From a virus (lineage: Duplodnaviria; Heunggongvirae; Uroviricota; Caudoviricetes), in the IMG/VR virus record IMGVR_UViG_2698536477_000007: a DNA stretch of 35,574 nucleotides; one strand, given 5' to 3'. Shown piece by piece: positions 3,383 through 35,574 of this stretch; positions within the stretch are counted from its first letter, which is position 1; each line of letters starts with the position of its first letter. A model generated the notes under the pieces. The model saw nothing but the letters and a program-made list of their open reading frames with translations. It was not told the DNA's origin and did not search any database. The translations under genes and the position numbers were made by a program.

Positions 3383-3721
3383 ATGACACAGAGACGCAGC
3401 TTCCGCACTGGCACAGAACGCCACGCAGCCCGTTTCTCAACCAGCGCATCACGCAGCAACTCGCACTACAGCCTGCAGGAAACGCACGCCACACCTGACG
3501 GGCATCTGGTTAAACAAACCGGTAAACATACCTGGCTGATTAATGATGCCGGAATTGTCATTCACCGGGGCGCACGCAACCCGATTACCGGAAATACCTG
3601 TTACTCCCTGACTCGCGGAGATGAGCAGTTCGGGCAGGATTTCACCCTGCACGAAGCATTAAGAACGGCAGACCGGTTAATCAGCGGTCGCAGTTTTCAG
3701 CACCCGGAACATCGCCGCTGA
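3383..3721 (+). CDS. Hypothetical early protein, 112 aa
   Basis: ORF with ACGGAG ribosome-binding site; GC content returns to phage background. Confidence 0.55.
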   Translation: MTQRRSFRTGTERHAARFSTSASRSNSHYSLQETHATPDGHLVKQTGKHTWLINDAGIVIHRGARNPITGNTCYSLTRGDEQFGQDFTLHEALRTADRLISGRSFQHPEHRR

Positions 3722-3740
3722 TAAATAAAAGGATTCAGCC

Positions 3741-3983
3741 ATGATCGAAGCCTACAAAATACTTATTAATAATGCGTTGCAGCGTTATCACTTCGAACTC
3801 GCAAACCGGGGGGTAACCCGGGACGAAGGACTTCGTAACTCACTGCGGGGCGCAATTATGGGACTGTATAACTGCGCACTGGGCAGCGATGACCGCGAAG
3901 CACTGGAAGAATTAAAAGTTATTGTGGCCGAACTGTTTGAAGGTGAAATCGTTGAGCCTTATTTCACAGAGGTGGCAGCATGA
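3741..3983 (+). CDS. Hypothetical early protein, 80 aa
   Basis: ORF closely following previous stop; phage-typical composition. Confidence 0.55.
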   Translation: MIEAYKILINNALQRYHFELANRGVTRDEGLRNSLRGAIMGLYNCALGSDDREALEELKVIVAELFEGEIVEPYFTEVAA

Positions 3984-4105
3984 GCGTATTTCTTTCATGG
4001 GTGATTCTGATTATTTCCGTGCTTATGGCGATTGGCATTATGCGAATTATCGAAGCGCTGAAAAATATCGAATCTTTATTTACTGGCGAAGAGCGCCGTA
4101 AATAA
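3980..4105 (+). CDS. Small hydrophobic peptide, 41 aa (MSVFLSWVILIISVLMAIGIMRIIEALKNIESLFTGEERRK)
   Basis: ATG overlaps upstream stop (GCATGAG at 3978-3984); one predicted transmembrane helix then a charged tail; below the ORF-track size cutoff. Confidence 0.4.
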   Translation: MSVFLSWVILIISVLMAIGIMRIIEALKNIESLFTGEERRK

Positions 4106-4184
4106 ATAACCAACCGGACAGAAAACATTAAAACCATCCGCATCTGCGGAGGGCTTCACTCAATCCAGAAACGGAGAAACAGCT

Positions 4185-4463
4185 ATGAGCACCAATACAC
4201 CTACAGAAATAAACAAACTATTTACCGACCCGGCGCATATTGAATTGACGCAAAAAACGCTGACTGAAATAACCAATGTACTGGATGAAAGAATATCAGA
4301 AATAGATAAAGACAAGCATTTTGCCACCTACATGGCCCTGCAAATGCAAAGCATGGCAATGGTGACAGCAAAACAGACCATCAGTGAACTCTATATGAAA
4401 AACCTGCGCCTCGAGCGCGAACTGGCAGAACTCCGGGCACAGTCCGGCCAGTTTTCAGCGTGA
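4185..4463 (+). CDS. Hypothetical early protein, 92 aa
   Basis: ORF with GGAG ribosome-binding site. Confidence 0.55.
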   Translation: MSTNTPTEINKLFTDPAHIELTQKTLTEITNVLDERISEIDKDKHFATYMALQMQSMAMVTAKQTISELYMKNLRLERELAELRAQSGQFSA

Positions 4464-4474
4464 GGGGCAGAACG

Positions 4475-4726
4475 ATGAACAGCATATTTACCGCCACAAG
4501 ACGAACCCTGCTGACGCATTTCACCGATGCCGCGGGCCGCGAGTTCATGGTGGAAAGTTATTTAATCACAACGACCACGCCGTGCCCGTCAGATGCTGAT
4601 TATCTCTACATCCATCTGGCTGACGGCACACAAATCACCGCGATTGCCAGTACCGTTCGCGAAGTAACGGCCATCAGAGGGGCATGGAAATCAGAAACAC
4701 AAGCCCACGGAGAGCTGCGGCCATGA
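4475..4726 (+). CDS. Hypothetical early protein, about 83 aa
   Basis: ATG 4475 preceded by GAGGGG; in-frame part of ORF 4460..4726. Confidence 0.5.
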   Translation: MNSIFTATRRTLLTHFTDAAGREFMVESYLITTTTPCPSDADYLYIHLADGTQITAIASTVREVTAIRGAWKSETQAHGELRP

Positions 4727-4935
4727 TCAGCAAGTACACCACCAACGCACGTAAACCCGGTAAAGACGCACGCCACCACATCGCCGTACTCCGCAATCTG
4801 TTACTGGAGGAAATCGACGACTTCACGGCAACGCTGAGCGGTCCGGGCGCACCAGTAACACCGGGTGAGATCCACCGGGACCTTAAACGCCGTATTGAAA
4901 ACGCCATTGATTACATCCTGAACCCGACCGAATAA
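4723..4935 (+). CDS. Hypothetical early protein, 70 aa
   Basis: ATGA start/stop overlap at 4723-4726; in-frame with ORF 4684..4935. Confidence 0.5.
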   Translation: MISKYTTNARKPGKDARHHIAVLRNLLLEEIDDFTATLSGPGAPVTPGEIHRDLKRRIENAIDYILNPTE

Positions 4936-4961
4936 CCGGAACAGTAACGGAGGTTATCGCG

Positions 4962-5516
4962 ATGAGACTTACACCAATGGGAATACCGGGCAAAGCCCCG
5001 GCACATGTGAAGGCGTGGACACAGCAGGAAGATCGGTTACTCATCTCGCTTTATCAGGAACACAACACACATCAGATGGCTGAACGAATTCAGCGAACCC
5101 GTAAAGCAGTTATGCACCGGATTCGTTTTTTACGTAATCGTGGGCTGATTGGCCGCAAGAGAAAAGCACCACTGAGTACAGAAGCCATAGCCTTTCTTAT
5201 TAAAAACCGTCATGTAAAAACCGCACAGGAAATGGCTCTGGAAGTGGGATGCAGTGAGTGCACAGTGAGGTACACACTGCGTAAACGGGGTTACAACCTG
5301 AAAAAATGCGGTGAGAACCACCATTGCGCCAGATACAGCGATCATCTGGTTGAGCTGGTCACGGAGCTACGCGACATACACAACATGACGTTCTGCATGA
5401 TCGCTGAACACATCAACAGCACGATACAGATGCACATTAACGACGATGCGGCGTTTCATCTCTACCACCGCCGCACCGCAACTGACGCAGTGCTCTGTGA
5501 ACTGTTACCGGACTGA
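4962..5516 (+). CDS. Putative DNA-binding protein with two helix-turn-helix-like segments, 184 aa
   Basis: GGAGG ribosome-binding site; segments QMAERIQRTRKAVMHRIRFLRNRGL and AQEMALEVGCSECTVRYTLRKRGY look like helix-turn-helix units. Confidence 0.55.
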   Translation: MRLTPMGIPGKAPAHVKAWTQQEDRLLISLYQEHNTHQMAERIQRTRKAVMHRIRFLRNRGLIGRKRKAPLSTEAIAFLIKNRHVKTAQEMALEVGCSECTVRYTLRKRGYNLKKCGENHHCARYSDHLVELVTELRDIHNMTFCMIAEHINSTIQMHINDDAAFHLYHRRTATDAVLCELLPD

Positions 5517-5531
5517 GTGATCATCATGCAC

Positions 5532-5766
5532 ACACAAAAAAACCGCTTGCCAGCGTTCGCCTGGTCGGGTTACAGTTTTCCCGCACCTCATAAAACGGGT
5601 GCCGGGTTTCGCAGCCTGCTGACAACCAAAGCGCACAACCGCGCCAGCGGTTTTTTTGTGCGTACTGTATTGCCACGTTTTTTTCGCGTCAGAATTATGG
5701 CGGGGCGTACGGGGCCGACTTCGGTCGGGCCGGGTTCTTTGGTTGCCGGTACTGCGAACCCCGTAC
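5532..5766 (+). other. Structured GC-rich non-coding element (candidate RNA leader or terminator-promoter module)
   Basis: Perfect 15-bp inverted repeat CACAAAAAAACCGCT (5532-5546) / AGCGGTTTTTTTGTG (5645-5659); hairpin plus T7 run at 5636-5656; 9-bp perfect stem CGTACGGGG (5705-5713) / CCCCGTACG (5758-5766) enclosing a cUUCGg tetraloop hairpin (5714-5727); ORFs overlap in all frames here. Confidence 0.35.
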
Positions 5767-5836
5767 GTCTCGCCACCCACAGTTTCGCAGCTCTGGATGG
5801 TGAGTTTTCAAAACTTACAACCAAAGAGGCCACACC

Positions 5837-6064
5837 ATGGCAAACCGCAAGCAACAGCGCGCCCGCGCTGAGCGTCTTCACATCCGCACCGAAATCAACC
5901 GCAGACTCTGGCGCGCATCACGCGTCGCGCAAATCATGCATATCAACATGCTGCATGAGCGCACGCACGCGCTATCAAACCGTTACTGCGCTGCTGTCTT
6001 CAGCTATCTCGCCGAAGATATGGCAGAACTGCAAAGCCTCATCAACCAGCAACACCACCACTAA
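5837..6064 (+). CDS. Hypothetical small basic protein, 75 aa
   Basis: AAAGAGG ribosome-binding site 8 nt upstream. Confidence 0.5.
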   Translation: MANRKQQRARAERLHIRTEINRRLWRASRVAQIMHINMLHERTHALSNRYCAAVFSYLAEDMAELQSLINQQHHH

Positions 6065-6131
6065 ACAACATCCTGAAGCCATCCCGCCCCGTGCGCGGGA
6101 GGCTTCCGCACGTCTGTTACCGGAGGTTCTC

Positions 6132-6548
6132 ATGAAGAGCGTTAAGGGACTTTCAGATATTCAGGACTTTTTTAACTGGATGTGGGCAGTGGATCCCCGG
6201 CTGGCTTCCCGCCTGAACGACTGGCACGACTATTACCGCCGCGCCTGTAAACGGGCCGCCAGACGCGTCACCACATACGGGGATTTCTCCTTCACCGTTG
6301 ACGACCGTTACCGCGTGGACGTGAAAGGTGATGGTGATGGTTTTGGTTTATTTCACATCAACGGAACCGACAGCACCGCCATCAGCTGGTCGTCGTCAGA
6401 GATGACGCTTGTTCTGGAAATGACAAACCACAGCGTGGCCGTGAAAGGTATATACACCGCAGAAGACTTTATCGGTGAATACCAGCGCCTTCTCGTGCTG
6501 TACCGGGCAGCGTTTCAGGCGGCAACTGCCGGGGAGTGCGACGCATGA
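6132..6548 (+). CDS. Hypothetical protein, 139 aa, immediately upstream of A
   Basis: GGAGG ribosome-binding site 7 nt upstream of ATG 6132; stop overlaps A start (ATGA at 6545-6548); the 5' part of the 343-aa track ORF is judged non-coding. Confidence 0.6.
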   Translation: MKSVKGLSDIQDFFNWMWAVDPRLASRLNDWHDYYRRACKRAARRVTTYGDFSFTVDDRYRVDVKGDGDGFGLFHINGTDSTAISWSSSEMTLVLEMTNHSVAVKGIYTAEDFIGEYQRLLVLYRAAFQAATAGECDA

Positions 6549-9064
6549 GCGACCATAACGCACAACTGGCGTACCCGTGGAACGCCCCGCTGCCGGTTAT
6601 CGATCCTGAAACGTTCGGCAGAGCGCAACCAACCGCATTACGCCAGGCCATTCAGAGCTACATCAACGAAGACATTCGCACTGACGCCAGACTGGATGAA
6701 GAAACCGTCGCCTTCCTGACAACCACAGACGAAGGGAAGCGAATTAATTCGCATCTTCATCACGACGAAGAGCGTCGGATCAGACTGGAAAAACTGACGC
6801 GACACAAACGCGAAAATCCACCCACACTGGTATCTGAAGCCATGGCGGAGCTGCGCGCCCTGCCGCCGTTTCTTGCCGGTCCGCTCATCCGGGACCTGGC
6901 ACGCCTGAGCCGCAAACAGGAGAGCGCACGCCGGGAAGGGCTTAAGAACAACAGCGCATACGCGGCGGATAACTTCGTTCGTCACGGGCTGCGTGCCCGC
7001 CTGAAACGTATCGCCCGTGTGAATGAACGCTTTGCCACCCCGGCCTTTAAGGCCACCGCCGCGCGCGAACGGCTGGATGAACTGCTTATGCTGCCGCAGC
7101 TGAGCCGTGACGAAATCCAGCGCCTTGCCACCCTGACCGCCACCGCGTTTTCCACCGCACTGGAGCGCGCATGTGATGAGGTCATCGAAAAGACCGGCAG
7201 GGGTGACGATGACCTGCTCACCTGGTTACTGACCTACCAGCCACTGGCACACATGGCGTTAAAACTGGGTATCACGCCACCCTGCTGGCCGTCGCTGGAA
7301 ATCAGGCCCGACCGCCGCACCGCCCCCGACCCGGAACAGGTGCCGGGTGCGGTCATGCGCCTTTCCTGTGCGACATGGTGGAACAGTCAGTTAAGACACC
7401 TCCGGGACATCTGGCGTGAAGAACTGTTACGCGCCGCAGGTCTGGTGTCACGTAAGACATCGGTATATATCAGCCATGAAGCGTTACTGGACTGGCGCGA
7501 AAAACGCCAGCGCACCCGCGATTTTCTGAAGGCCTGGGACATCGAGAACGAAGAGGGAGAACGGTTCAGCCTTGAGGATATCTACTGGGCAGGTCTCTCT
7601 AATCCGCGTAACCGCCGTAACGAGATGATGGCCTGCGTCCGGGGGATGGAGCAGGTCGCCGAAGCACGCGGCGACGTGGCGTTTTTCGTCACCGTCACAG
7701 CCCCTTCCCGTTTTCACAGCGTGAACGATGACGGCAGTCTGAACCCGAAATACTGCGGGGCAACGGTACGTGATGCCAGTGATTATCTGGTTTACCGCTT
7801 TTTCGCCGCCGTCCGCAAGGCCATCAACAAGGCCGGGCTGGGCTGGTACGGCGTGCGCACCGTGGAGCCCCACCACGACGGTACACCGCACTGGCACATG
7901 CTGGTATTCACCAGCCCGGAAAACGAAGCCCGTATCACTGAAATCATGCGCAACGCCGCCATCAGGGAGGACCGCGCAGAGCTGGGTGATGATATATCCC
8001 CGCGTTTTAAATGCGAAAAAATCGACCCGGCAAAAGGCACACCGGCAAGCTATATCGCGACCTATATCGGTAAGAACCTGGACGCCAGCGCCTTCATGGG
8101 GAATGACCCGAAAACCGGCAAACCTTACGTCGATAAGGAATCAGGCAAAACCATGGCCGAAACCGTGGAGAACGCCATCGGCTGGGCGGCCCTTCACCGC
8201 ATCCGCCAGTTCCAGTTCTTCGGTATCCCGCCCCGCCAGGTATGGCGCGAACTCCGCCGCCTTGCCGGGCAGATGGCCCGTAACCCGACTGCCCCGCAGC
8301 GTCTGGACCATGACGACATTGACGCCATACTGGCCGCCGCCGACGTGGGATGTTTTGCCACCTATATCACCCGCCAGGGTGGTGTGCTCATTCCCCGCAA
8401 CACGTACCTGGTCCGCACCGCATACGAAACTGCCGAAGAGGCCAACGACTACGGCGAATTCCCGCAACGCATTTACGGCGTCCGCGCCCCGTCACTCGGG
8501 GAGCGCTACACCATATGCACCCACCCGGACACCTGGAAACTGGTCAGACGTAAGCCGGAAAACGAAGACCGCACGGACGAGGGTTTTGACGTTGAGTGCG
8601 GCTTTGCCGCACCTTGGACTCGTGGCAATAACTGTCCCCCTGACCAGAATCTGACCATAAACGACCCGCCAGAAAGGCAGCCGGACGGACGCAGGGAGCA
8701 GCGACTTACCCTGCCGGAAGGTGATTTGGGTGAATGGTTAAGGTCACTGACCCCTACAGAGCGAAAACAACTCACCAGGCAGCTGAAAAACCCGCCACCT
8801 GACACGGAAACCGTGAAAAACGGCGGCATCAGTGCGCCCGCTGGCGGCGTTCGCGTGAGTGTCGCACTGACCGCTGAGCCACACATCACCGCACAAATCA
8901 CCCGCGAGCTTGATGCGCTGGGCGTGCAGCTGCATGAAAGCGCCGTCGTTTCCGTCCGTCACGGTGCCCGCGTGCGCCTGGCTGACGGACGCACCGCGTA
9001 CTGGAATGACAGCACCCGCCGCATTGATATCACCCCCGCACCGAATACGGAGGCGCCACAATGA
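6545..9064 (+). CDS. A: Rolling-circle replication initiation endonuclease, P2 gpA / 186 RepA family
   Basis: 839 aa; contains ...GTPHWHMLVF... (HUH-type metal-binding motif of P2 A-like initiators); large early gene in the expected position. Confidence 0.88.
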   Translation: MSDHNAQLAYPWNAPLPVIDPETFGRAQPTALRQAIQSYINEDIRTDARLDEETVAFLTTTDEGKRINSHLHHDEERRIRLEKLTRHKRENPPTLVSEAMAELRALPPFLAGPLIRDLARLSRKQESARREGLKNNSAYAADNFVRHGLRARLKRIARVNERFATPAFKATAARERLDELLMLPQLSRDEIQRLATLTATAFSTALERACDEVIEKTGRGDDDLLTWLLTYQPLAHMALKLGITPPCWPSLEIRPDRRTAPDPEQVPGAVMRLSCATWWNSQLRHLRDIWREELLRAAGLVSRKTSVYISHEALLDWREKRQRTRDFLKAWDIENEEGERFSLEDIYWAGLSNPRNRRNEMMACVRGMEQVAEARGDVAFFVTVTAPSRFHSVNDDGSLNPKYCGATVRDASDYLVYRFFAAVRKAINKAGLGWYGVRTVEPHHDGTPHWHMLVFTSPENEARITEIMRNAAIREDRAELGDDISPRFKCEKIDPAKGTPASYIATYIGKNLDASAFMGNDPKTGKPYVDKESGKTMAETVENAIGWAALHRIRQFQFFGIPPRQVWRELRRLAGQMARNPTAPQRLDHDDIDAILAAADVGCFATYITRQGGVLIPRNTYLVRTAYETAEEANDYGEFPQRIYGVRAPSLGERYTICTHPDTWKLVRRKPENEDRTDEGFDVECGFAAPWTRGNNCPPDQNLTINDPPERQPDGRREQRLTLPEGDLGEWLRSLTPTERKQLTRQLKNPPPDTETVKNGGISAPAGGVRVSVALTAEPHITAQITRELDALGVQLHESAVVSVRHGARVRLADGRTAYWNDSTRRIDITPAPNTEAPQ

Positions 9065-9465
9065 CCCGCTTTTATTGCGCCATGCAGCGACAGCGTTTTG
9101 ACGAACTGATGCGCCAGCGCACGCCCTTACTGACCCTGAACAACATTGCCACGGGGCCACAACCTGGCGATGAGCTGGAAATCACGGTCGTCAGTCCCGA
9201 TCGCACCACCACGGCCATCATCACCGACATACTCAACGGACGACCGGACAGCACTAACCGCAGTTGGCTTGTCGCCGTTCGTCCGCGCCGTCCGCCCGGG
9301 GAGCCGGAGCCGCTCACGCCTGCCGGAAAAATCATGCGGCAGTACCACGAAGAGCAGGCACACAAACACAACGCAGAACTCACCAGAACACTGGCATCGA
9401 TTAACCGAAAAGCGGCAATTGCCCGCTATGTGCATTCGGCCGCCAACAGGCAATCACGCAGGTAA
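9061..9465 (+). CDS. Hypothetical protein, 134 aa
   Basis: ATGA overlap with A stop (9061-9064). Confidence 0.5.
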   Translation: MTRFYCAMQRQRFDELMRQRTPLLTLNNIATGPQPGDELEITVVSPDRTTTAIITDILNGRPDSTNRSWLVAVRPRRPPGEPEPLTPAGKIMRQYHEEQAHKHNAELTRTLASINRKAAIARYVHSAANRQSRR

Positions 9466-9512
9466 CAAAGACCATGAACATAACCAGAAACAGCAAACTG
9501 AAGGAGCACACC

Positions 9513-9668
9513 ATGAACGACATCAGGAGGATCAGCGACAAAGACCTGAAGAAAATGATTGAGTCGGCACAGCAGCTGCTTTCACGACAAAACCCGGTCG
9601 TGGAAGAAACGTGGTGGGAGAATTTACTTGCAGCACTGACCGAACTCCGGGAGCGCCGTCAGCAGTAA
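9513..9668 (+). CDS. Hypothetical small protein, about 51 aa
   Basis: AAGGAG ribosome-binding site 7 nt upstream of ATG 9513; in-frame part of ORF 9474..9668. Confidence 0.4.
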   Translation: MNDIRRISDKDLKKMIESAQQLLSRQNPVVEETWWENLLAALTELRERRQQ

Positions 9669-9741
9669 GGCTGCGCTGGCGCGCCTGATTTTTTCACCGC
9701 AACGCAATTTATTCGCCTGGCACACAAAGGAGAACACCACA

Positions 9742-9906
9742 ATGAACGAACTGTTTATCGCCGTTAAGGGCGCGCTGATTTTTACCATTGCATGGATTGC
9801 TTTAATGGCATTCCTGACGTGGGAAAACCCGTTTCGCCACTTCACAGCAGGCTTTATCGCCAGAATTTATGCGGCAACCGTTGCGGTTATCTGGTTGCTC
9901 TCGTGA
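9742..9906 (+). CDS. Small membrane protein, 54 aa (MNELFIAVKGALIFTIAWIALMAFLTWENPFRHFTAGFIARIYAATVAVIWLLS)
   Basis: AAGGAG ribosome-binding site; two hydrophobic helices; below ORF-track cutoff. Confidence 0.45.
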   Translation: MNELFIAVKGALIFTIAWIALMAFLTWENPFRHFTAGFIARIYAATVAVIWLLS

Positions 9907-10093
9907 CTGAAAGGAAAAAACGTGTGAAAAGAAGACAACTAAAAAAATACAACCCCATGAAATTGAGCAGCATAAAAAAGCGAACATTTAGTACAGACAG
10001 CACAAAAGTTATAAAGATCACTTTTATAGCTTTTGCTGTCTATATAGTAAATGAGATGTGGTAAAAGTTAGTCACTAACCACAAGGAAGAGAT

Positions 10094-10312
10094 ATGCCAA
10101 CACTTATTGGGAAAGTACTACGCCGATACACGGATGCGGTAGCATCACATGTTGATACAAATCTGGAGCAAACAGCAAAATACCGACTTACCGTTGATGC
10201 AAACGGTAATGCGACCCTGAACATTGACAACCCTGAAGTCAAAGCCGACATCATTCGGAAGATGAAATATCTCCAACAGATACATAACCGCACAAATAAG
10301 GATGTTGCTTAA
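10094..10312 (+). CDS. Hypothetical protein, 72 aa, in AT-rich segment
   Basis: AAGGAAG ribosome-binding site 7 nt upstream; preceded by about 190 bp of AT-rich promoter-like sequence. Confidence 0.5.
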   Translation: MPTLIGKVLRRYTDAVASHVDTNLEQTAKYRLTVDANGNATLNIDNPEVKADIIRKMKYLQQIHNRTNKDVA

Positions 10313-10371
10313 TGGCACCACTCATCATCATTTGCAAAGAAAAGCGCCAGCCGCATTCCGTTAAGAGAGCT

Positions 10372-10402
10372 GGTGAGTCGGGGCAAAAATTCTTTTTGCC
10401 CC
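10372..10402. other. Candidate cos site region with adjacent perfect 10-bp stem hairpin
   Basis: GGTGAGTCGGGGCAAAAAT (10372-10390) matches 13 of 19 positions of the P2 cohesive end as I recall it (GGCGAGGCGGGGAAAGCAC); hairpin GGGGCAAAAA-TTC-TTTTTGCCCC at 10380-10402; position downstream of Q-like gene fits P2. Confidence 0.4.
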
Positions 10403-10429
10403 GGCGAAGCAGCAGACAAGCGAAGCGCG

Positions 10430-10693
10430 TCAGGAACGCCGCGACAGAAGTTCAAGCGCATACCGGCGATCTTCCGGGCGCATGGCATCCACCAGGAACT
10501 TCACCATATTGCGACAGGAGCGGGCACCGGGGCTGAGGGTATGGGAAAAGGTCATCGTACAGACGAAGGTGTGCCCGCATTCGACATCACTGCATGCACA
10601 GTAAAGATCCGCAAGTTCAAGGGTTTTCCAGTCTGTCTTCCGGATGACAGCAGGTGCGCCACAGTCCGGACACCGGGCTTTAAAAATCCGCAT
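10430..10693 (-). CDS. ogr: Ogr/Delta-family zinc-finger late transcription activator, 87 aa
   Basis: MRIFKARCPDCGAPAVIRKTDWKTLELADLYCACSDVECGHTF gives C-x2-C-x22-C-x4-C spacing as in P2 Ogr; GGGAGGT ribosome-binding site before ATG 10693. Confidence 0.75.
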   Translation of the reverse strand: MRIFKARCPDCGAPAVIRKTDWKTLELADLYCACSDVECGHTFVCTMTFSHTLSPGARSCRNMVKFLVDAMRPEDRRYALELLSRRS

Positions 10694-10730
10694 CTTACCT
10701 CCCGATAACACGTATCCCGGGGAGGACATT

Positions 10731-11783
10731 TTACCCGACCGGCACCGCTTTTTCTTCCGCCACATGCCCGGCATCCACATCAAAACAAAGATAAAGGTGT
10801 TCCGGTATATCGGGATCGCTGTTCACGGCGTTCATGATTTTACGCTGAAGCGGTATCACCTCATCCTTGCGGTACGTTTCACGCGTCGTCTCCGGGTTAG
10901 GGATGGTGGCCCCGTTCGTGGGGATGATCCCCGCAAGACCGGCAGGAAAACGGTGTGCCGTAAACACATCCTGGGCACTGATCCCCTTGATGTTTGAAAA
11001 TTCATCCTTGGCGCTCACCTCACCAATCGGAATAATTTTCACCCCATCCGGCGAACCTTTGGGGATGTTGATGTACAGATTGCGGAAGTTTCCCAGCCCC
11101 TTAGACTCCGCCACCTTCTCGCGGATCTCATCCTCCATCTCCGTAGTGATCCCCGGGTCGTTCGTATACAGCAAAAACCCCATATGCGCCCCGTTGTTGT
11201 AGTAACGGCGACGAAAAAGGCTGGCCTCGCTGTTCAGCAGCGCCGAGTGAATGCCACCGATATAATCCGGCAGCCCGTAAATTTGCTGACGCGGATCATA
11301 CATCCGCAGAAAGATAATATCTTCCGGCGTATAGACCAGCGCGGGGCCTTCCTGAAGCACCACGAACTCACCGGTTTTGCGGCGCCGGAGATACAGCGAC
11401 GGAAGCGGCTCAAGTGCCACGACGTCGCCGAATACGTTACGCACCTTGAGCAGGGCGAGATCGCCGAACAACAGGTAGTCAAATACCGCCTGTTCCATCT
11501 GGTCCGTTGTGAGACCACCACCGGTATAGCCCCCCGCCACCATGTTACGGCGGGCATACAGCACCCCACCATGCTGGGCGTTAAGGTTCGGGAGCTGCGC
11601 CAGTGCCAGGCGGTTAATCGGCAGCTGCCAGTGGTTGTGTTCGTTGTCATACCAGATGTTATGGTAGTCCGTGCCGGTGGTCAGCACCGGTTCCGGCTGG
11701 CCAAAGGTGATTGTGCTGCCACGTGCGGGCGTGAATGCTTTTTTCGTCACGCGTGACGTTTTGTTTCTGCGTTTCTTGCTCAT
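10731..11783 (-). CDS. Q: Portal protein, P2 gpQ family
   Basis: MSKKRRNK... start; conserved ...LFRRRYYNNGAHMGF... and ...GVKIIPIGEVSAKDEFSNIKG... match P2 Q from recall; ATGA overlap with P stop. Confidence 0.9.
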   Translation of the reverse strand: MSKKRRNKTSRVTKKAFTPARGSTITFGQPEPVLTTGTDYHNIWYDNEHNHWQLPINRLALAQLPNLNAQHGGVLYARRNMVAGGYTGGGLTTDQMEQAVFDYLLFGDLALLKVRNVFGDVVALEPLPSLYLRRRKTGEFVVLQEGPALVYTPEDIIFLRMYDPRQQIYGLPDYIGGIHSALLNSEASLFRRRYYNNGAHMGFLLYTNDPGITTEMEDEIREKVAESKGLGNFRNLYINIPKGSPDGVKIIPIGEVSAKDEFSNIKGISAQDVFTAHRFPAGLAGIIPTNGATIPNPETTRETYRKDEVIPLQRKIMNAVNSDPDIPEHLYLCFDVDAGHVAEEKAVPVG

Positions 11784-13585
11784 GCGGCTTTCCCGAAGGC
11801 CCATGTGGACGGGCGTTCATAGTCATAATCTACAGGCTCATTAATCACGGCGTGCGAAATGGCAAAAAACACATCCGCATGCCCCGTAACATCCGACCGT
11901 TCCGCCACGAACGTCAGCGCGTTACCGCTTTTTGTGGTGGTGCGGCGTATGGACATGAACGACGCGGGGATCTCCGTGCGTTCACGGCTGGCCTCATCAA
12001 TGGCGTCTTTCGCCCACTCGATACGCTTATGGGCCACCACGTCTATCATTTTCATCACCAGGCGGTTTTTGCTCTCCACGCTGTAAAGAATGGCGTTAGC
12101 CTCACGTGGCGCAAAGCGACTGACGATATCAAACACCCCTTTCCCGATACCGGTGATATCTATGCCGATATAGGTAATGTTAAAGCGCTGCATCAGTTCG
12201 CGGATCTGATCGGCCTGCCAGGTGAAGTTAAACCCCTGCCACTGCCAGACGGCGAGCACACGGAACCGCTCGCCTTCATGGACAGGCGGAGCCACAATTA
12301 CAAACGTGGAATTATCCCCGGACCTTGACGGGTCAAAGCCCGCCCACACCTCACGATTGCCGAACGGACGTGCCGCCGTGGGATCGTAGTCACCCCACGT
12401 CTCCATCTCCACCTCGCACCTGACCAGTTCGGAGAACTTAAATACCGCATCCTTGCTGTCAACAAACTCGCAGCCGTACAGCATCGCATAGGTGGTCGGG
12501 TTGTAGAGGTTCCTGATACGTTCAATATCAACCCGTGCAGACAGGCCACCCGCCACCGCCTCTTCCAGCCGGATAATGTAGCGCCAGATCCCGTCAGGGC
12601 ATTCACAGCCCACACGCATCGCGCTTTCTTTCGGAAACTCAACAGCACGACGCGTCGGGTCATCCCCGCGCCAGTCGTCACCGTTCCAGACCAGATAAGC
12701 CTGGTGGGTTTTGGCGCTGGGTGTGGAAAAATACGTCGTGCGGTATTTGTCGTGGGTCGCCATTGCCGAGGCCACTTCATGCAGTCGCGTGAATTTTGGG
12801 ATCCAGAACACCTCATCGCCGTAAAGGTGGCCGTTAAATCCCTGGGCGGTACTGGCATTGGTGGACAGGAAGCGCAGCATTGCACCATTGCTCAGACGGA
12901 TATGCTTACCCGTGAGCGTGATCCCGAACTGCTGGGCGAAATCAATAATATATTCACGGAAGATTTCCGCCTGTACCCGTGACGCAGAAAAGAAAATCTG
13001 GTTATCACCGGTCACCACCGCATCTTCGAACGCCTCCCATGCAAAATACCAGGTCATGCCGATCTGGCGGCTCTTGAGGATGAAACGGCGCTCACGGTGC
13101 CGGTTCTCGCGGCAGTGCAGCTGGTAGGCATAAAGATTTTTACGCGCCCATTCATCCAGCATTTCAGCAGTCAGTCCGGAAACGTCGTTTTTCCGGTAGC
13201 GCCGCTTTTTCCCTTCTCCCCCGCCGCAGGTCCCCGCAGCCGCGCCGTCCTCATACCCTGCCGGACGCAGGGCGGAAATTTCCGCCATCCTTTCAGCGTG
13301 TTTGTTTTTCTGGGCGATGATCTTCACGTGCTGTGCGATAAGTTCACGCAGTTCGGCAAGTTCACACTCTGTCTTGCCCTCCCGTCCGGTCAGCACATCA
13401 ATACGCCGGGCGATCACGTCCTCAACGGATTCGGCGGGCAGCAGGGCGGCCCACTGCCCCACATCACACCAGTGGTAAACCGTGCGCGGCGGAATACCGA
13501 GTTCCGCCGCAATATCGCGGGGGTGCCACCGCTTCAGGTAAAGCGATCGCGCCGCCTCTTTGATTTCGTCAGAATATTTAGCCAT
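11780..13585 (-). CDS. P: Terminase large (ATPase) subunit, P2 gpP family
   Basis: About 601 aa, co-oriented with Q and divergent from O as in P2; start 13585 (MAKYSDE) or 13606 ambiguous. Confidence 0.88.
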   Translation of the reverse strand: MAKYSDEIKEAARSLYLKRWHPRDIAAELGIPPRTVYHWCDVGQWAALLPAESVEDVIARRIDVLTGREGKTECELAELRELIAQHVKIIAQKNKHAERMAEISALRPAGYEDGAAAGTCGGGEGKKRRYRKNDVSGLTAEMLDEWARKNLYAYQLHCRENRHRERRFILKSRQIGMTWYFAWEAFEDAVVTGDNQIFFSASRVQAEIFREYIIDFAQQFGITLTGKHIRLSNGAMLRFLSTNASTAQGFNGHLYGDEVFWIPKFTRLHEVASAMATHDKYRTTYFSTPSAKTHQAYLVWNGDDWRGDDPTRRAVEFPKESAMRVGCECPDGIWRYIIRLEEAVAGGLSARVDIERIRNLYNPTTYAMLYGCEFVDSKDAVFKFSELVRCEVEMETWGDYDPTAARPFGNREVWAGFDPSRSGDNSTFVIVAPPVHEGERFRVLAVWQWQGFNFTWQADQIRELMQRFNITYIGIDITGIGKGVFDIVSRFAPREANAILYSVESKNRLVMKMIDVVAHKRIEWAKDAIDEASRERTEIPASFMSIRRTTTKSGNALTFVAERSDVTGHADVFFAISHAVINEPVDYDYERPSTWAFGKAA

Positions 13586-13751
13586 GCGCCCATTATGGCG
13601 GCGCATCCGGCCCGCATTCAGGCAGAAAATTTCGGCTGTGTTCGGCTATCCCGCGTTATCCGAAGGCAGCCGAATTCAGCCAGTAGCCCCCCGCTGTAAA
13701 AATCCCGACACTCACCGGAGTTCTTCAGATTTTCACGTAAAAGAGGCCACG

Positions 13752-14801
13752 ATGCCGCAGCCAACGTTGATGACCGACTGGATATGTATCGCCACATCAG
13801 GACCGACCGTTGACGGCCGCGAAATTGATCCGCAGTGGCTGACTGATGCCGCTGAAACCTATTCCCGCAACACCTACACGGCGATGCTGTGGCCCTGGCA
13901 TGAGGAAGAAATCGGACACCGCCAGTACACCAGTAATCTGGGTGAAGTGGACTCACTGAAAGCGGAAACCGGCGAGGACGGTAAAACCCGCCTCTACGCA
14001 CGGCTGGTCCCTAACCAGTACCTGATTGAAGCCAACAGACTGGGGCAGAAGCTGTTCACATCCGCCGAGATAGTGGAGAACTTCGCCCGGAGCGGACGCG
14101 ACTATCTCCTGGGCGTGGCGGTGACGGATATCCCCGCCAGTCTGGGGACGGAAAAAATACGCTTCACCCTGAACAACGAGGAATACACGGCACAGCGGGC
14201 GAACTGCCAGACGTTCACGCTGGGCAGCCTGTCACCGGACACCTCCCCGGCCCCCCGTAAACCTGAATCATTCCTGAAACGCCTGTTCAGCGCAGGACAG
14301 ACCGACAACACCGACACCAGTAAGCCTGATACAGGCGAGGACGCAAAAATGGACGAAATTAAAGCACTGCTTGAAAAGCTGATCACCCTGGTGGAAGGCG
14401 GCAGCGCCGCTGCCACTGGCGAGGGCACAGCAGACACGCCGGAAGAAGCAAAAGCCGAAGTCGCGGAAATCGCCGCCGAAATCGCCGACGCCGCCGCAGA
14501 GGTGGCAGAGCTGGCAGAAGAAGTGAAAGCCGCCCCGGAAGACGAGGTTAAGGCCGAAGCCTTTACCGCTGCAAAAGCGAAGCTGGAAGACGCCATCAAA
14601 GCCTTCAGCACCATCACACCGGAAAAAGGCGAACGTTACCGCCGCTTTGCCGCCCGTCGCCGGGACGACACCGACAAAGAAGAAATCAAAGCCATTGCCG
14701 AAAAACTTAACGACCTGACCACGAAGCTGTCAGCCACCGGCATCACGCCACGCCCGGCTGGCACACCGGCAGAAAGCGAAAAACCGTTTGACTTTGTTTA
14801 A
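13752..14801 (+). CDS. O: Capsid scaffolding protein, P2 gpO family
   Basis: AAGAGG ribosome-binding site at ATG 13752; ...GVAVTDIPASLGTEKIRF... resembles P2 O ...GLAVTDDPASLGTEYLEF...; Ala/Glu-rich coiled-coil C-terminus. Confidence 0.85.
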   Translation: MPQPTLMTDWICIATSGPTVDGREIDPQWLTDAAETYSRNTYTAMLWPWHEEEIGHRQYTSNLGEVDSLKAETGEDGKTRLYARLVPNQYLIEANRLGQKLFTSAEIVENFARSGRDYLLGVAVTDIPASLGTEKIRFTLNNEEYTAQRANCQTFTLGSLSPDTSPAPRKPESFLKRLFSAGQTDNTDTSKPDTGEDAKMDEIKALLEKLITLVEGGSAAATGEGTADTPEEAKAEVAEIAAEIADAAAEVAELAEEVKAAPEDEVKAEAFTAAKAKLEDAIKAFSTITPEKGERYRRFAARRRDDTDKEEIKAIAEKLNDLTTKLSATGITPRPAGTPAESEKPFDFV

Positions 14802-18305: not shown

Positions 18306-19451
18306 GTGAGCTGGCCGAATGTAACCGTAAGCCATCAGAACCGTTTCAACGGTGCCACCCGTGAAGTGGAGCGCACGCTGCTTTTTGTGGGCTATGGCAA
18401 AAAGAACACAGGTAACACCCTTTCCGTCTCCCCTGAGACCGACCTGGACGACGTGCTGGGACCGGATGAAAGCCTGCTTAAATCCACGCTTACCGCCGCA
18501 ATCGCCAACGGTGGCCAAAACTGGTTTGCCTATGTTCACGTTCTGTCTGAACCCAAACCCCCGACACCGGAGGGCGGCGACGCTAACGCCGCATGGGTGG
18601 ACGCGGTGAAAAAAGCGCAGACCATTGCTTCTGCCGAAGGCGTGGTGATTGCCATTGACATCACGGCTAAAGATGCCGTTAACCGCGCCACCGAAACCCG
18701 CGCCCTGCTTCAGTCCGCTTATGGCCGTTTTGTCTGGTTCATGCTGTGCGTGGCCGGACCGGGCAGGGATGAGGCATGGGCGGCATACGTCACCCGCATC
18801 AGTGCCATACAGGACGGCGTGGCAGCACCTGGCGTGATGGTGGTTCCCCGCTTATGGGGAAATGAGCCCGGCGTACTGGCGGGCCGTCTCTGTAATCCTT
18901 CTGTCACCGTTGCGGACAGCCCGGCACGCGTGGCAACCGGTGCTCTGGTGGCGATGGGTAACGATGAGATCCCGCAGGACGGCAAGAAACAGCCCCTTGA
19001 GCTGGCCACGCTACGCTCGCTGGAAGGCAAACGCTTCAGCGTGCCCATGTGGTATCACGATTTCGACGGGCTCTACTGGTCAGACGGACGCACCCTTGAT
19101 GTGGAGGGGGGCGATTACCAGGTCATCGAAAACGTGCGCGTGGTGGATAAGGTCTCCCGCCGTGTACGTCTGCGTGCCATTGCCCGCCTTGCGGATCGCG
19201 CGCTCAACAGCACACCGGGCAGCATTGCCGCCAGCCAGACATATTTCAGCCGCACGCTGCGTGAAATGGCGCTCGCCACAGAGATTAACGGCGTACCGTT
19301 CCCCGGCGAGGTTAAACCGCCACAGGACGGGGATATCACCATCGTCTGGACCAGCAGTACACACGTGCAGATTTACATTGTGGTACGCCCCTACGAGAGC
19401 GCAAAAGCCATTGGCGTAAGTATTGAACTCGACACAGCACTGGAGATCTGA
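18306..19451 (+). CDS. Tail sheath protein (non-P2-FI type), 381 aa
   Basis: GTG start with AAGGAG 8 nt upstream; large protein immediately preceding a tube-sized gene. Confidence 0.65.
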   Translation: MSWPNVTVSHQNRFNGATREVERTLLFVGYGKKNTGNTLSVSPETDLDDVLGPDESLLKSTLTAAIANGGQNWFAYVHVLSEPKPPTPEGGDANAAWVDAVKKAQTIASAEGVVIAIDITAKDAVNRATETRALLQSAYGRFVWFMLCVAGPGRDEAWAAYVTRISAIQDGVAAPGVMVVPRLWGNEPGVLAGRLCNPSVTVADSPARVATGALVAMGNDEIPQDGKKQPLELATLRSLEGKRFSVPMWYHDFDGLYWSDGRTLDVEGGDYQVIENVRVVDKVSRRVRLRAIARLADRALNSTPGSIAASQTYFSRTLREMALATEINGVPFPGEVKPPQDGDITIVWTSSTHVQIYIVVRPYESAKAIGVSIELDTALEI

Positions 19452-19918: not shown

Positions 19919-20224
19919 ATGCCGGACGGTCAGACTTCACTCCTGGCAAAACTGATTATCATCGGTGCTGCCATCGGGCTGGGGCGTCTCATGGTGAGCC
20001 GCGATCGCATCACAGCCCGTCTGCTTATCGGGCGAATGATTATGGGCTCTGCCGTGGCACCGGTTGCCGCCATTCCGCTGTTTAAATTTCCGGACATGCC
20101 GGAGCTGGTTGTGGTCGGTCTGGCGTGCGCGCTGGGCATTATGGGCAGCGCCTTTATTGAAGAATGCTTTTGCCGTCTGGCAGACCGCTACCTGAAGCAG
20201 AAGGAACGCAGAAATGACCCATAA
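19919..20224 (+). CDS. Putative holin, three transmembrane helices, 101 aa
   Basis: Three hydrophobic segments and a charged C-terminus (RLADRYLKQKERRNDP); in same operon as endolysin and spanins. Confidence 0.5.
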   Translation: MPDGQTSLLAKLIIIGAAIGLGRLMVSRDRITARLLIGRMIMGSAVAPVAAIPLFKFPDMPELVVVGLACALGIMGSAFIEECFCRLADRYLKQKERRNDP

Positions 20225-20966
20225 GCCTTACATTTCGCCTTCCCTGAGCCTGTATCACGCGCAGGCGCATGACGTTCTGCGGATGCTGCCGGAAAACAGT
20301 GTGGACGCGCTCATCACAGACCCGCCATACAGTTCAGGTGCCACACACAAGGCGGGGCGGACATGCCAGGGCAGCCACGCCAAATACATCAACGATGAAG
20401 ATCTTCACCGCTTTGAAGGCTTCGAAGGCGAGAACATGGACGCCCGTTCATGGGAATACTGGACGCATCTGTGGATGACACAGGCATGGCGCACGGTACG
20501 ACCCGGTGGTTACGCCCTGGTCTTCACCGACTGGCGGCAGTTGCCCGCGCTGACGGACGCATTCCAGGCCGCCGGCTTTACCTGGCGGGGGATCGTGGCA
20601 TGGAACAAGGGACGGGCCTCAAGAACACCGCATACCGGTTATTTTCGTCACCAGTGCGAATATGTGGTCTGGGGCAGTAAAGGCGCGCTGGGCAAATCCC
20701 CTTCCGGGCCGTTCGACGGCTGCACCACGCACCACACACGCCCACAGGAGAAACAGCACCCGACAGGTAAACCGGAATCGTTGATGGATGAGCTTGTGCG
20801 CGTGTGTGAACCCGGAGGGCTGATCCTCGATCCGTTTATGGGGTCCGGCACCACGGGCGTGGCCGCCCTTCGCCGGGGCTGCCGTTTTACGGGTATTGAA
20901 CTGAACGCCCACTATTTCAGCGTGGCACAGGCGCGCCTTACGGGGACGGAACAGAGGAGTGACTGA
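20214..20966 (+). CDS. Orphan beta-class DNA amino-methyltransferase (N6-adenine or N4-cytosine)
   Basis: Motif IV DPPY (ALITDPPYSSG) near the N-terminus and motif I LILDPFMGSGTTGVAA near the C-terminus, the beta-class order; no restriction endonuclease gene adjacent. Confidence 0.85.
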   Translation: MTHKPYISPSLSLYHAQAHDVLRMLPENSVDALITDPPYSSGATHKAGRTCQGSHAKYINDEDLHRFEGFEGENMDARSWEYWTHLWMTQAWRTVRPGGYALVFTDWRQLPALTDAFQAAGFTWRGIVAWNKGRASRTPHTGYFRHQCEYVVWGSKGALGKSPSGPFDGCTTHHTRPQEKQHPTGKPESLMDELVRVCEPGGLILDPFMGSGTTGVAALRRGCRFTGIELNAHYFSVAQARLTGTEQRSD

Positions 20967-30420: not shown

Positions 30421-32094
30421 ATGAACCCCACTAAACGTCTGTTACTGGGTAACGACACCATTCAGCTGGTCAGTTGTTCCGTCATGCTTGAGCTGAACGC
30501 GTGCGGACGCGGATTTATCACGGCCAGAACAGAGCAGAACTACACCGGGCGCCCCGTTCGTCTCGATATCGGATACGGAAACGACCTGGTGCGCTGGTTT
30601 ACCGGATACGTTGAACGCAGCCAGCCCGCTGAAAACGGCTCGGTGCGGCTTCTGATTCGTGAAATGGCGGGGATCCTTGATCACCCCTTCCCCTGTTCAT
30701 TTCAGCACCCGACAATGCGCACGGTCACACAGTGGCTGAGTGAGGCCAGCGGGCTGGAAATCATCCTGCCGGACAACGCGGCTTACACTGACAGACCCGT
30801 TCCGCATTTCACACACAGCGGCACGGGCTACGAACTGCTGGCCAGTCTGGGGCGTATTTTCTCCGTACCGGATTACATCTGGCATCCGTTACCGGACGGC
30901 GGCATTATGGCCGCTGCTGCCGCGCAGGGGATGTTTTCCGGTCGCCCCGTCACCATCCCGCACGAGTTCAGCCAGGCATCAACGGGCGGGCACAGTATGA
31001 CCCTCCCGATGATTCAGACGCTGCGACCGGGTGTGGAGGTGAACGGTCAGCGCCTGACGATGGTCATGCTGGAAGATGACAACATGACCATCACGTGGAC
31101 ACCGCGCAATAAAGCCACCGGCGCTCCCCTCCAGAAGTCCCCTTTCCGTCGCCAGGCTGAAAAGGCCTTCCCTGAGCTGGCATCAGGGCTTCACCTGCCC
31201 AAACTGGCACGTGTTGAGGCACCGACCGAAGCCGTCAGCGCGGGCAATATTGCCGACCCGTTCAGACCCCGCTACGCGGTGAATCTCCAGCTGCTTGACG
31301 AGAACGGCAACCCGGCAGCAGATACGCCCGTCTATAACGCCGTTCCCCTCCCCGTTCCCATGGCGGGCAGTGAGTCCGGCATGTTCCAGTTCCCGCCACC
31401 CGGAACCCTGGTGGAAGTGGGATTTGTGGAAGGCCGGGCGGATAAGCCCTTCATCCGCCAGATAATGGCAGAGGGCCACAATCTGCCCGACGTGAAGCCG
31501 GGCGAGCAGTTGCAGCAACAGCGCGACGGCGTATCGCAGCGCGTGACGGTCGCCGGAGACTGGGAGCGCCAGACAGACCAGCGGATACAGGAGACATCAC
31601 GCGAGCGCGTGGTGAGTGCAGACGAGGAAAAGCGGAGCCTGACCAGCCGGGAGACCACCATACAGGCAACCGACACAACCACCGTCCTGGGCGTATCCAC
31701 GCTTCAGGCTGGCGCGGTCACCCATATCACTGAAGAGAACTACAGCATCAGCACGGGCGGGCACATGATGGTGGTTGCCGGTACCTGTGAGCGCGACGTG
31801 GAAGGCGACACCCAGGACACCGTGGGCGGCAGCCTTACCGAAAAGATTAAGGGCGTCCGTCACAGTATTGCGCTGGCGCAGAAGCTGGTTGGCGATACGG
31901 TGAAGCTGGGAAACGAGGGCATTAATGTACTGACCATGCTGACGGACCTTGCCGATGTGGTGGAAGAGCTGGCCGATATTACAGCATCACATACCCACCC
32001 AAAAACGGGCACGTCTCCGCAGGCCGCACAGTTCAGCCAGGTCGCTCAGGAGTGCCGCCAGCTTAAAAATAAATATTCACCAATAATCGAATAA
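30421..32094 (+). CDS. Baseplate hub/spike protein (gpD-like N-terminus with gp5/VgrG-type fold segment)
   Basis: 557 aa; ...FPPPGTLVEVGFVEGRADKPFI... resembles the conserved gpV/VgrG spike motif; last gene of tail operon. Confidence 0.6.
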   Translation: MNPTKRLLLGNDTIQLVSCSVMLELNACGRGFITARTEQNYTGRPVRLDIGYGNDLVRWFTGYVERSQPAENGSVRLLIREMAGILDHPFPCSFQHPTMRTVTQWLSEASGLEIILPDNAAYTDRPVPHFTHSGTGYELLASLGRIFSVPDYIWHPLPDGGIMAAAAAQGMFSGRPVTIPHEFSQASTGGHSMTLPMIQTLRPGVEVNGQRLTMVMLEDDNMTITWTPRNKATGAPLQKSPFRRQAEKAFPELASGLHLPKLARVEAPTEAVSAGNIADPFRPRYAVNLQLLDENGNPAADTPVYNAVPLPVPMAGSESGMFQFPPPGTLVEVGFVEGRADKPFIRQIMAEGHNLPDVKPGEQLQQQRDGVSQRVTVAGDWERQTDQRIQETSRERVVSADEEKRSLTSRETTIQATDTTTVLGVSTLQAGAVTHITEENYSISTGGHMMVVAGTCERDVEGDTQDTVGGSLTEKIKGVRHSIALAQKLVGDTVKLGNEGINVLTMLTDLADVVEELADITASHTHPKTGTSPQAAQFSQVAQECRQLKNKYSPIIE

Positions 32095-32108
32095 TCATTC
32101 ACTTTAAC

Positions 32109-32133
32109 AGGCCGCGCAATGTGGCCTTTTTTA
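32109..32133 (+). terminator. Rho-independent terminator of the late tail operon
   Basis: Stem GGCCGC (32110-32115) / GTGGCC (32121-32126) with 5-nt loop, followed by TTTTTT (32127-32132). Confidence 0.55.
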
Positions 32134-32219
32134 TTCCCGGACGATAAAAAATATTCATCAACGGACATCACCCACCACGAAAAACCGTCCGCAGCAGAAA
32201 AAAAGATGGACGAAACGCC

Positions 32220-32790
32220 CCACGTAATCCCCGCGTAAAACGTCACGTAACGCCACGTAACGAAGAGATAACCCCGCCGGCCCGATTCGATCCCCTGACA
32301 TCAGAAAACGATTTCTGCGCCCCAGAATCGCCGCAAATGGCCGGAAATTTTCGGGGGCGACGTAACGCGTAAAGTGACGTAATCGGCGCTACCCCGCACA
32401 CGCCTCCGGTATTTGTGTACGATAAATTTTGCAAATCGAAATGGGTGCAAAACACCCCGCCAGGGCGCGCCATTACTGAGGTTTTCCCTTCTGAATGGTT
32501 TTGCACTTTGTGCAAGGTTTTGCAAAAGTGTGCAAAAACTCCGGCTTTCTGAGGATCCCGAAAAAATTTAATGCACTGAATAACAAGAGATTTTTAAAAT
32601 TACGTCACGATCGAAGATCTGAAAAAGGATCCGACGACGAAAACGAAAAAATCAGGAAAGCCAGAACTGGCGCGGCCTGGCGGGGAGTGGCAGCAAAAAT
32701 CACTTTTGCACACTTTTGCACAACTGCTCCGAAAAAGGATGGCGAAGGGGAAGGAAAAACAGCCACGTCATCCGTTGCACGTAACGGACG
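32220..32790. repeat. Non-coding region dense in short repeated motifs (CACGTAACG-type and TTTTGCAC/GTGCAAAA-type)
   Basis: ACGTAA at 32222, 32245, 32255, 32360, 32377, 32780 plus inverted TTACGT at 32600; TTTTGCA/TGCAAAA clusters at 32427-32450, 32498-32540, 32701-32723; no credible ORF. Confidence 0.5.
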
Positions 32791-32955
32791 TAAAAGGTAA
32801 ATTACGCGCGGGTGCCTTTCGGCTGACGGCTGGAAGGAATACCTGAAGGCCGGATGTGAAAAGGCCCCGAGTCAACTAACGTTAACCCGAGGCCCTGACA
32901 CTTCCTACCTGACAAGTGGAAGGTTAGCGCCTCCCTGTAAAAGGAGTCAAGCGCT

Positions 32956-33096: not shown

Positions 33097-33185
33097 GAAA
33101 CCGCAGCGGGGGTGAAAGCCCCCGCTATCCGGTTGCCGGGTTCGGCTGATATGGCACCCTTTTGGGTTAGCGTACTGACTTCATT

Positions 33186-33210
33186 GCCCGCAATATGCGG
33201 GCTTTTTTTT
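33186..33210 (+). terminator. Rho-independent terminator at end of hok unit 1
   Basis: GCCCGCA-ATA-TGCGGGC followed by T8. Confidence 0.6.

Positions 33211-34281: not shown

Positions 34282-35574
<1,293 letters not shown>

Follow-up and report, generated by a model that had tools for sequence, protein, structure and literature searches.

In P2 the late activator gene ogr is located after gene D, beside the phage attachment site (attP); it is transcribed from a promoter of its own and uses the F-operon terminator. In the virus record IMGVR_UViG_2698536477_000007 (Caudoviricetes; the whole stretch analysed, 35,574 nt, is called the window below), a gene of the same family lies just downstream of the portal gene and is followed by a perfect hairpin and a sequence resembling the P2 cohesive end. 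A preliminary description of this DNA, made from the letters alone, took the locus for a rearranged late-control architecture with the cohesive-end site (cos) next to the activator gene. Is the architecture of this phage rearranged, and is the element beside the gene its packaging site? The explanation that we favour, with a probability of about 0.75, is that the gene encodes an Ogr-type activator of the phage K139 kind in the place that is normal for its lineage, that the adjacent island is a junction relic of the type carried by phage P88, and that the phage's own cos lies after the tail genes, at 32389-32404.

Identity of the zinc-finger protein

The minus-strand open reading frame at 10430-10693 begins with an ATG at 10693 and ends in a stop codon at 10430-10432, and its 87-aa product (MRIFKARCPDCGAPAVIRKTDWKTLELADLYCACSDVECGHTFVCTMTFSHTLSPGARSCRNMVKFLVDAMRPEDRRYALELLSRRS) carries Cys 8, 11, 34 and 39 in the spacing C-x2-C-x22-C-x4-C, the motif that defines the Ogr/Delta family (PMC3931495). 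Both the frame and the spacing were as first described. The protein matched Pfam PF04606 (Ogr_Delta) over the whole profile (positions 1-47/47; 56.1 bits, E 3.5e-15, curated cut-off 26.3 bits) and PHROG 603, "transcriptional regulator" (E 3e-28), and RefSeq already names it an ogr/Delta-like zinc finger family protein (WP_047084234.1). When nine members were aligned (the window protein, K139 orf13, phiO18P gp19, SI7 gp38, ESSI-2 gp32, P2 Ogr, P88 Ogr and both halves of P4 Delta), the four Cys alone were invariant, which together with the Pfam match bears out the zinc-finger identity proposed for it.

The protein shared 44-59% of its residues with members of the K139 group, and identity fell to 18-28% for Delta and the Ogr proteins of P2 and P88 (19% for P2 Ogr); the protein scored 17.7 bits against NCBIfam NF007241, the P2 Ogr equivalog, which is below the cut-off of 116. 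The signature CGHTFV...FSHTLSP was common to the window protein and its K139-orf13-type homologues, for which tblastn gave E values from 7e-33 to 2e-16. Tyr42 of P2 Ogr, which has been associated with contacting the alpha subunit of RNA polymerase, aligned with Thr46 of the window protein. Taken together, the Pfam match and the low identity and equivalog score indicate a member of the family that belongs to a separate subfamily: judged from its sequence, the 87-aa protein is an Ogr/Delta-family C4 zinc finger of the K139-orf13 subfamily, distinct from P2 Ogr. By analogy, it is presumed to be a late-transcription activator.

Gene order in related phages

The portal gene (gpQ-like; 10731-11783, minus strand; Pfam Phage_portal) is on the same strand as the zinc-finger gene, and the gap between its end at 10731 and the zinc-finger ATG is 37 bp, with a GGGAGG ribosome-binding site, which agrees with the earlier placement of the gene just downstream of portal. 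The large terminase subunit gene, terL (gpP-like; 11780-13585, minus strand; Pfam Terminase_6N, Terminase_6C and Terminase_5), comes next. The portal protein was 78% identical to that of Salmonella phage SI7 and 31% identical to that of P88; identities to SI7, phiO18P, HP1 and P88 were 76%, 49%, 47% and 36% for the large terminase subunit and 67%, 42%, 40% and 29% for the small subunit.

Homologues of the zinc-finger protein were present in 129 phage records (tblastn), and the annotated order in K139, SI7, ESSI-2 and phiO18P is terL, portal gene, zinc-finger gene and then the convergent rep side. We scanned species-representative genomes with this terminase for synteny and obtained 53 loci (Enterobacterales, Vibrionaceae and others), 49 of them with both terL and the portal gene. 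The zinc-finger gene was on the same strand and at most 400 bp downstream of portal in 34 of the 49, and in most of the others it was a few kb farther away; across Enterobacterales and Vibrionaceae it was the sole conserved regulator linked to the late module. In HP1 (NC_001697), we observed an unannotated Ogr-like frame (...YYCACKNPLCGHRFVMNMEFSHT...) just downstream of portal (10435-10680, minus strand), which an apparent frameshift after the first C-x2-C splits in the 1996 sequence, and HP1 is therefore no exception to the portal-Ogr synteny. A portal-adjacent Ogr-like gene has been stated for K139 and Smhb1, and contrasted with P2, in print (PMC8537503).

In P88 (NC_026014), an unannotated 86-aa Ogr gene (MFRCPLCGASARIRTSR...) follows gene D, in the P2 position (34476-34736, plus strand), and no counterpart of this gene was found in the window by tblastn or on reading the region 32095-32560. 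The contrast with P2 that had been drawn is real, since the late region of P2 has ogr at its other end, after D and beside attP, but the supposed rearrangement is the ordinary layout of K139, phiO18P, ESSI-2 and SI7. The location of the zinc-finger gene is the standard one in the HP1/K139/phiO18P/SI7 branch of P2-like phages, and the gene family, its function and its portal-side position have already been annotated and published.

Hybrid genome and candidate native cos

The window is an E. coli P2-like prophage inserted between dmsA and serS, and its positions 9400-11400 were 100% identical to three complete genomes. In blastn comparisons, P88 matched 3399-10435 and the three hok repeats at 32798-34171, and 10529-32537 was collinear with SI7; at the junction the P88 similarity stops at 10435 and the SI7 similarity begins at 10529. 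By these matches the window is a hybrid, with a P88-like early region that extends from int through rep and the cargo genes up to 10435, a P88-like hok end and an HP1/SI7-like part from the Ogr-like gene to about 32540.

In HP1 and phiO18P, the distance from the last late gene to the annotated cos, which adjoins attP, is about 200 bp, and for HP1 and HP2 the adjoining of cos and attP has been reported (Lavigne et al., PMC2771037); in this lineage, many linear records stop 165-300 bp past the gpD-like gene. In the window, 294 bp downstream of the last late gene (30421-32094), we found CTACCCCGCACACGCC (32389-32404, plus strand), a candidate native cohesive-end site of the HP1/phiO18P type that could be aligned with phiO18P, ESSI-2 and SW5. 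Aligned column for column, it matched the annotated 16-nt phiO18P cos (CTCATCCGCTCCCGCC) at 11/16 positions and, over 16 nt, agreed at 14/16 with the 15-nt sequence that the ESSI-2 record has at each end (CTACACCGCACCCGC); the SW5 record is broken at the homologous site. Moreover, the blastn collinearity with SI7 continues through 32396-32537. The last late gene is followed in order by a terminator, two CGTAA repeat clusters, CTACCCCGCACACGCC and a TTTTGCAAA-rich stretch. The two clusters of direct CGTAA/ACGTAA repeats (32216-32386, plus strand), within which 5 of the 16 plus-strand ACGTAA copies of the window are packed in 160 bp, are probably terminase-binding repeats; analogous CACGGAA/ACGTAA repeats precede the cos of HP1, phiO18P and SW5. 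The alignments thus argue strongly for 32389-32404 as the native cos of this phage. With the gene at the portal side and cos after the tail genes, the activator gene and cos have therefore probably exchanged ends relative to P2.

Two further observations concern this site. Its reverse complement (32386-32404, minus strand; GGCGTGTGCGGGGTAGCGC) starts with GGCG and matches the P2 cohesive end at 12/19 positions, which is not significant alone; a common origin of the P2-type and HP1-type cos, with opposite orientations with respect to the late genes, is possible. In addition, the SI7 record (around 20476-20490) is without 9 nt (CTACACCGC) that are present in the cohesive-end sequence of SW5 and ESSI-2, and its start falls inside the portal gene; both features look like assembly artefacts at cos.

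Conserved island next to the activator gene

The perfect 10-bp hairpin reported earlier (GGGGCAAAAA-TTC-TTTTTGCCCC, 10380-10402) was confirmed downstream of the zinc-finger stop, and its context folded as plus-strand RNA with a z-score of -3.8. It belongs to a 70-bp conserved island (10367-10438, plus strand), a P88-type element at the module junction that comprises the hairpin, GGCGAAGCAGCAGACAAGC (10403-10421) and GAAGCGCGTCAGGA. The island was 92-94% identical to 16 P88-like phage records with flanks that do not align, and in the P88-like records it stands directly past the portal stop; in some prophages an extra gene is placed between island and portal. It was found in 1151 of 5426 complete E. 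coli genomes (about 21%) and every E. coli hybrid prophage of this type (13 or so) retains it, and none of the relatives sharing the window's terminase lineage has it, plain terminators being there instead. Copies of P88 type have the stem GGGGCATAAA-TTT-TTTATGCCCC, with one compensatory double change, and conservation reaches about 35 bp past the hairpin, through GGCGAAGCAGCAGACAAGCGAAGCGCG. Among 120 IMG/VR copies, two had the left flank GCTGCTTCGCC, the exact complement of the right-side GGCGAAGCAGC, giving an inverted repeat of 21 bp, and one of these two had the stem variant GGGGTAAAAA with one pair broken.

The similarity to P2 that had suggested a cos here is a 13/19 match between the P2 cohesive end (GGCGAGGCGGGGAAAGCAC) and 10372-10390 (GGTGAGTCGGGGCAAAAAT). 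The match itself is real, but 14 sites on the two strands of the window reach at least 13/19, so that the score is at chance level. The sequence GGCGAAGCAGCAGACAAGC, directly 3' of the hairpin, matched the P2 cohesive end at 10/19 positions ungapped, or with 14 matches when two gaps were allowed.

For the P88-like phages themselves, we lean towards the island being their cos core, because it has a layout like that of the 55-bp cos core of P2/P4 (GGCGA directly following the hairpin, with GCGCG farther 3'), because the P88 gene order is the P2 order, including ogr after gene D, and because no other cos candidate of P2 or HP1 type was found in the P88 genome, which gave only chance-level matches in coding regions. 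Its position between the rep-side hotspot and the Q operon is also like that of the P2/P4 core; unlike that core, it has a diverged sequence and, in the window copy, a neighbouring terminase from another lineage. The P88_4B11 record starts 338 nt upstream of the island and has no terminal repeat.

It is possible, if unlikely, that the island is unrelated to packaging in any phage and is a transcription stop, an RNA-stability hairpin or a protein-binding boundary where the early and late units converge that has been conserved as a recombination anchor. It stands in for the canonical terminator that follows the Ogr-like gene in relatives, it is exactly at the module junction beside the cargo hotspot, and no phage record ends at it; the compensatory stem change and the two variants with the 21-bp inverted repeat also fit such a role. 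However, no T-run follows the stem on either strand, and the hairpin was rejected as a canonical intrinsic terminator, the consensus scan and the scan with our own criteria both being empty. The roughly 35 bp conserved past the hairpin would be superfluous for a terminator, and P88 has the P2 gene order, and a search of the rest of its genome found no cos-like sequence of P2 or HP1 type.

Distinctly less probable is a genome with two working packaging signals that differ in specificity, one the native cos of HP1 type at 32389-32404 and the other, at 10367-10438, a P88-type cos core that is still intact, the latter element serving as the recombination anchor by which late modules and cargo are swapped between two distant P2-like branches. 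E. coli strain 154 has three copies of the island, and strains JNEC-KY172 and OkiPb01677 have a single one each.

We consider it improbable that the sequence beside the Ogr-like gene is the functional cos of this phage, as in P2 and as the preliminary description had it. The island has the place of the P2 cos, past the Q operon and towards the cargo hotspot on the rep side, its hairpin-then-GGCGA layout resembles the P2/P4 core, and its strong conservation extends to every prophage of the hybrid type. It is, however, an element of phages whose terminase subunits share no more than 36% (large) and 29% (small) identity with those of the window, it is replaced by plain terminators in the relatives that do have this terminase, and the lineage ends of HP1, phiO18P, ESSI-2 and SW5 are after the gpD-like gene, where the window has a homologous cos-type site; the 13/19 match adds nothing above chance. 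The hairpin and GGCGAAGC... element is probably not the packaging site of this phage.

Candidate late-promoter operator

The P2 late-promoter element is TGT-N12-ACA (PMC3931495), and the preliminary description had proposed to look for such sites upstream of the late operons. The window contained 8 such sites against 7.3 expected, none of them in the terL/gpO (P/O) region or in the late promoter gaps, and the motif was rejected as the operator for want of enrichment and of any promoter-gap site. The P/O region of P88 is also without an exact N12 site, and covariation between motif and subfamily was therefore not used as an argument.

A different candidate was found in the divergent terL/gpO promoter region, a nested inverted repeat at 13631-13674, in which the inner dyad TTCGGCTATCCCGCGTTATCCGAA (TTCGG-N14-CCGAA, 13641-13664) is flanked by outer half-sites TTCGG at 13631 and CCGAA at 13670. 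The TTCGG/CCGAA dyad cluster occurs once in the window. In 16 of 45 related loci, a strict TTCGG-N12-15-CCGAA was located 70-110 bp upstream of terL, and the remaining loci had degenerate copies at the same place; the strict dyad had a density of 1.77/kb upstream of terL vs 0.0066/kb elsewhere in the 45 loci (about 270-fold). It is present in the P/O regions of K139, ESSI-2 and phiO18P and partially in HP1. Measured from its centre, the window dyad is about 57 bp away from the point where the gpO transcript is inferred to begin, and the distance to the terL ATG is about 67 bp; the spacing to the -10-like element is conserved, and the geometry is like that of the -55 site of P2 Ogr. The enrichment and position suggest that the TTCGG-N14-CCGAA dyad is likely the binding site of the Ogr-like activator. 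Relative to strain 154, the window has small indels at 13664-13752 and is offset after about 13.7 kb, and annotation coordinates are not directly transferable.

That the zinc-finger protein is instead a repressor, an anti-satellite or a satellite-activating factor, with another protein in control of the late genes, is very improbable: its low identity to P2 Ogr, P88 Ogr and Delta, its score far under the Ogr equivalog cut-off and the missing P2 operator motif would allow it, but the gene is the only conserved regulator linked to the late module in Enterobacterales and Vibrionaceae, the characterised family members (Ogr, B, Delta and Pag) are, as far as known, all late-gene activators (PMC3931495), and this gene arrived with the exchanged late module, no counterpart of the P2-position ogr of P88 being found in the window.

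Transcription of the activator gene

No terminator was found between the portal gene and the zinc-finger gene, so that transcripts started at the terL promoter should continue into the latter. Within 90 nt of the zinc-finger stop, 28 of 34 relatives had a GC-rich hairpin and a T-run, and three more had obvious ones with longer loops. The co-transcription with the packaging genes that had been considered possible fits this placement, with a terminator-free gap after portal and a canonical terminator after the gene in relatives.

The gene may also be transcribed from a promoter of its own. A -10-like hexamer, TAAAAT (10728-10733, minus strand), is located about 30 nt before the Ogr-like ATG and shares bases with the portal stop codon, and (C/G)TAAAAT was conserved at the same distance from the Ogr-like start in all relatives inspected (Enterobacter, Erwinia, Hafnia, Photorhabdus, Xenorhabdus, Providencia, Pragia and Yersinia); the annotators of K139 placed the predicted promoter P13 at the corresponding spot. 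This conservation suggests that the activator gene would have its own promoter in addition to late read-through from the packaging operon. A gene that is last in a late operon and has its own promoter is common to the P2 and K139-type designs.

Upstream of terL, at 13583-13597 on the minus strand, CATAAT stands six bases before the terL ATG with no Shine-Dalgarno sequence, an arrangement conserved in most relatives. The position of CATAAT without a Shine-Dalgarno sequence suggests that the terminase mRNA may be leaderless or nearly so.

Proposed mode of late control

By analogy with P2 Ogr, the TAAAAT -10 promoter would supply a first burst of activator protein. The zinc-bound activator would then bind TTCGG-N14-CCGAA between terL and gpO, and from this dyad, which is centred about 57 and 67 bp ahead of the respective divergent starts, it would recruit RNA polymerase to late promoters that are poor in -35 elements. 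Transcripts from the terL promoter would read through portal into the activator gene and form a positive feedback. The P88-type island would have been retained at the recombination junction when the late module was swapped.

Several points weigh against this explanation or its parts. The native cos was assigned by homology instead of mapped ends. With regard to the island, none of the 16 matching P88-like records and none of the sampled contigs ends at it; no P4-like satellite with the island was present among the 120 sampled IMG/VR loci, all of which were beside a P2-like portal gene; and a literature search, including full-text 13-mers, found no report of the ends of P88 or phiSM. The dyad was paired with the protein by co-occurrence and position. 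P2 has four late promoters, and the window has one dyad; its other late promoters may differ, or the long cluster read rightward is perhaps a single unit. The -10 elements were assigned by eye, and a consensus promoter scan gave nothing at them. Finally, we found no experiment on this prophage or on any K139-type Ogr homologue.

Other features of the window

Between the candidate cos and serS, at 32798-34171, are three tandem Hok/Gef toxin copies of about 470 bp each. P88 has one hok locus at the corresponding end, to which each copy is about 73-74% identical. The cargo to the left of the island varies among strains. In the window, the AT-rich segment between rep and the island (9061-10312) contains four small open reading frames with no Pfam match, three of which match PHROGs of unknown function, and strain 2013C-3033 has a MarR-family regulator in the same slot. 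A cargo and defence-gene hotspot of P2-like prophages has been described next to cos, between gpA and gpQ (PMC9122126). The tail sheath gene (18306-19451) is intact in the window and annotated as frameshifted in E. coli O22:H8 strain 154. A DNA methyltransferase gene (20214-20966) is placed between the holin and endolysin genes of the lysis cassette, as in phiO18P.

Implications

For HP1-like E. coli prophages, a P2-centred reading misplaces cos. The window presents a clean swap of P88-like and HP1-like modules, whose left junction is a 70-bp element that occurs in about 21% of E. coli genomes and borders a known defence-gene hotspot. If there were indeed two cos in the genome, a co-resident P88-like prophage could cut the full-size hybrid genome and fill capsids of its own with it, a form of cos piracy in which no satellite takes part; P88-like prophages carrying the element are present in about a fifth of E. 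coli genomes. Further, TTCGG-N14-CCGAA would be a concrete operator candidate for the uncharacterised K139-type Ogr subfamily. We regard this operator candidate and the possible two cos signals in one genome as the parts of most interest, the rest being already known in kind and annotation.

Comparison with known systems

The closest parallels are K139 orf13, phiO18P gp19, SI7 gp38, ESSI-2 gp32 and the vB_YenM_324 homologue, which have the same length and Cys spacing as the window protein and the same gene position, directly downstream of terL-portal and facing the rep side. The K139-type phages differ from the window in having a canonical terminator after the gene, whereas the window has the P88-type hairpin element, and K139 itself has the small orf14 between portal and the zinc-finger gene.

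P2 Ogr, 186 B and P88 Ogr resemble the window protein in their Pfam Ogr_Delta match, their C-x2-C-x22-C-x4-C spacing and their size of 70-90 aa. P2 is alike also in its operon design, in which ogr comes last in a late operon, uses the operon terminator and has a promoter to itself. In contrast, ogr of P2 and P88 is after gene D next to attP and the window gene is after portal, and the P2 operator TGT-N12-ACA (PMC3931495) is not at the late promoters of the window. P4 Delta is of the same family, and the four Cys align with each of its halves, but it is a covalent tandem of two Ogr-like domains encoded by a satellite, whereas the window protein is a single-domain protein of a full phage.

The candidate cos of the window shares with those of HP1, HP2, phiO18P and ESSI-2 its location after the gpD-like gene, its sequence homology, the direct repeats upstream and the TTTTGCAAA-rich stretch downstream. 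Those sites are about 175-220 bp after the last gene, compared with 294 bp in the window, the longer distance being due to an extra repeat cluster.

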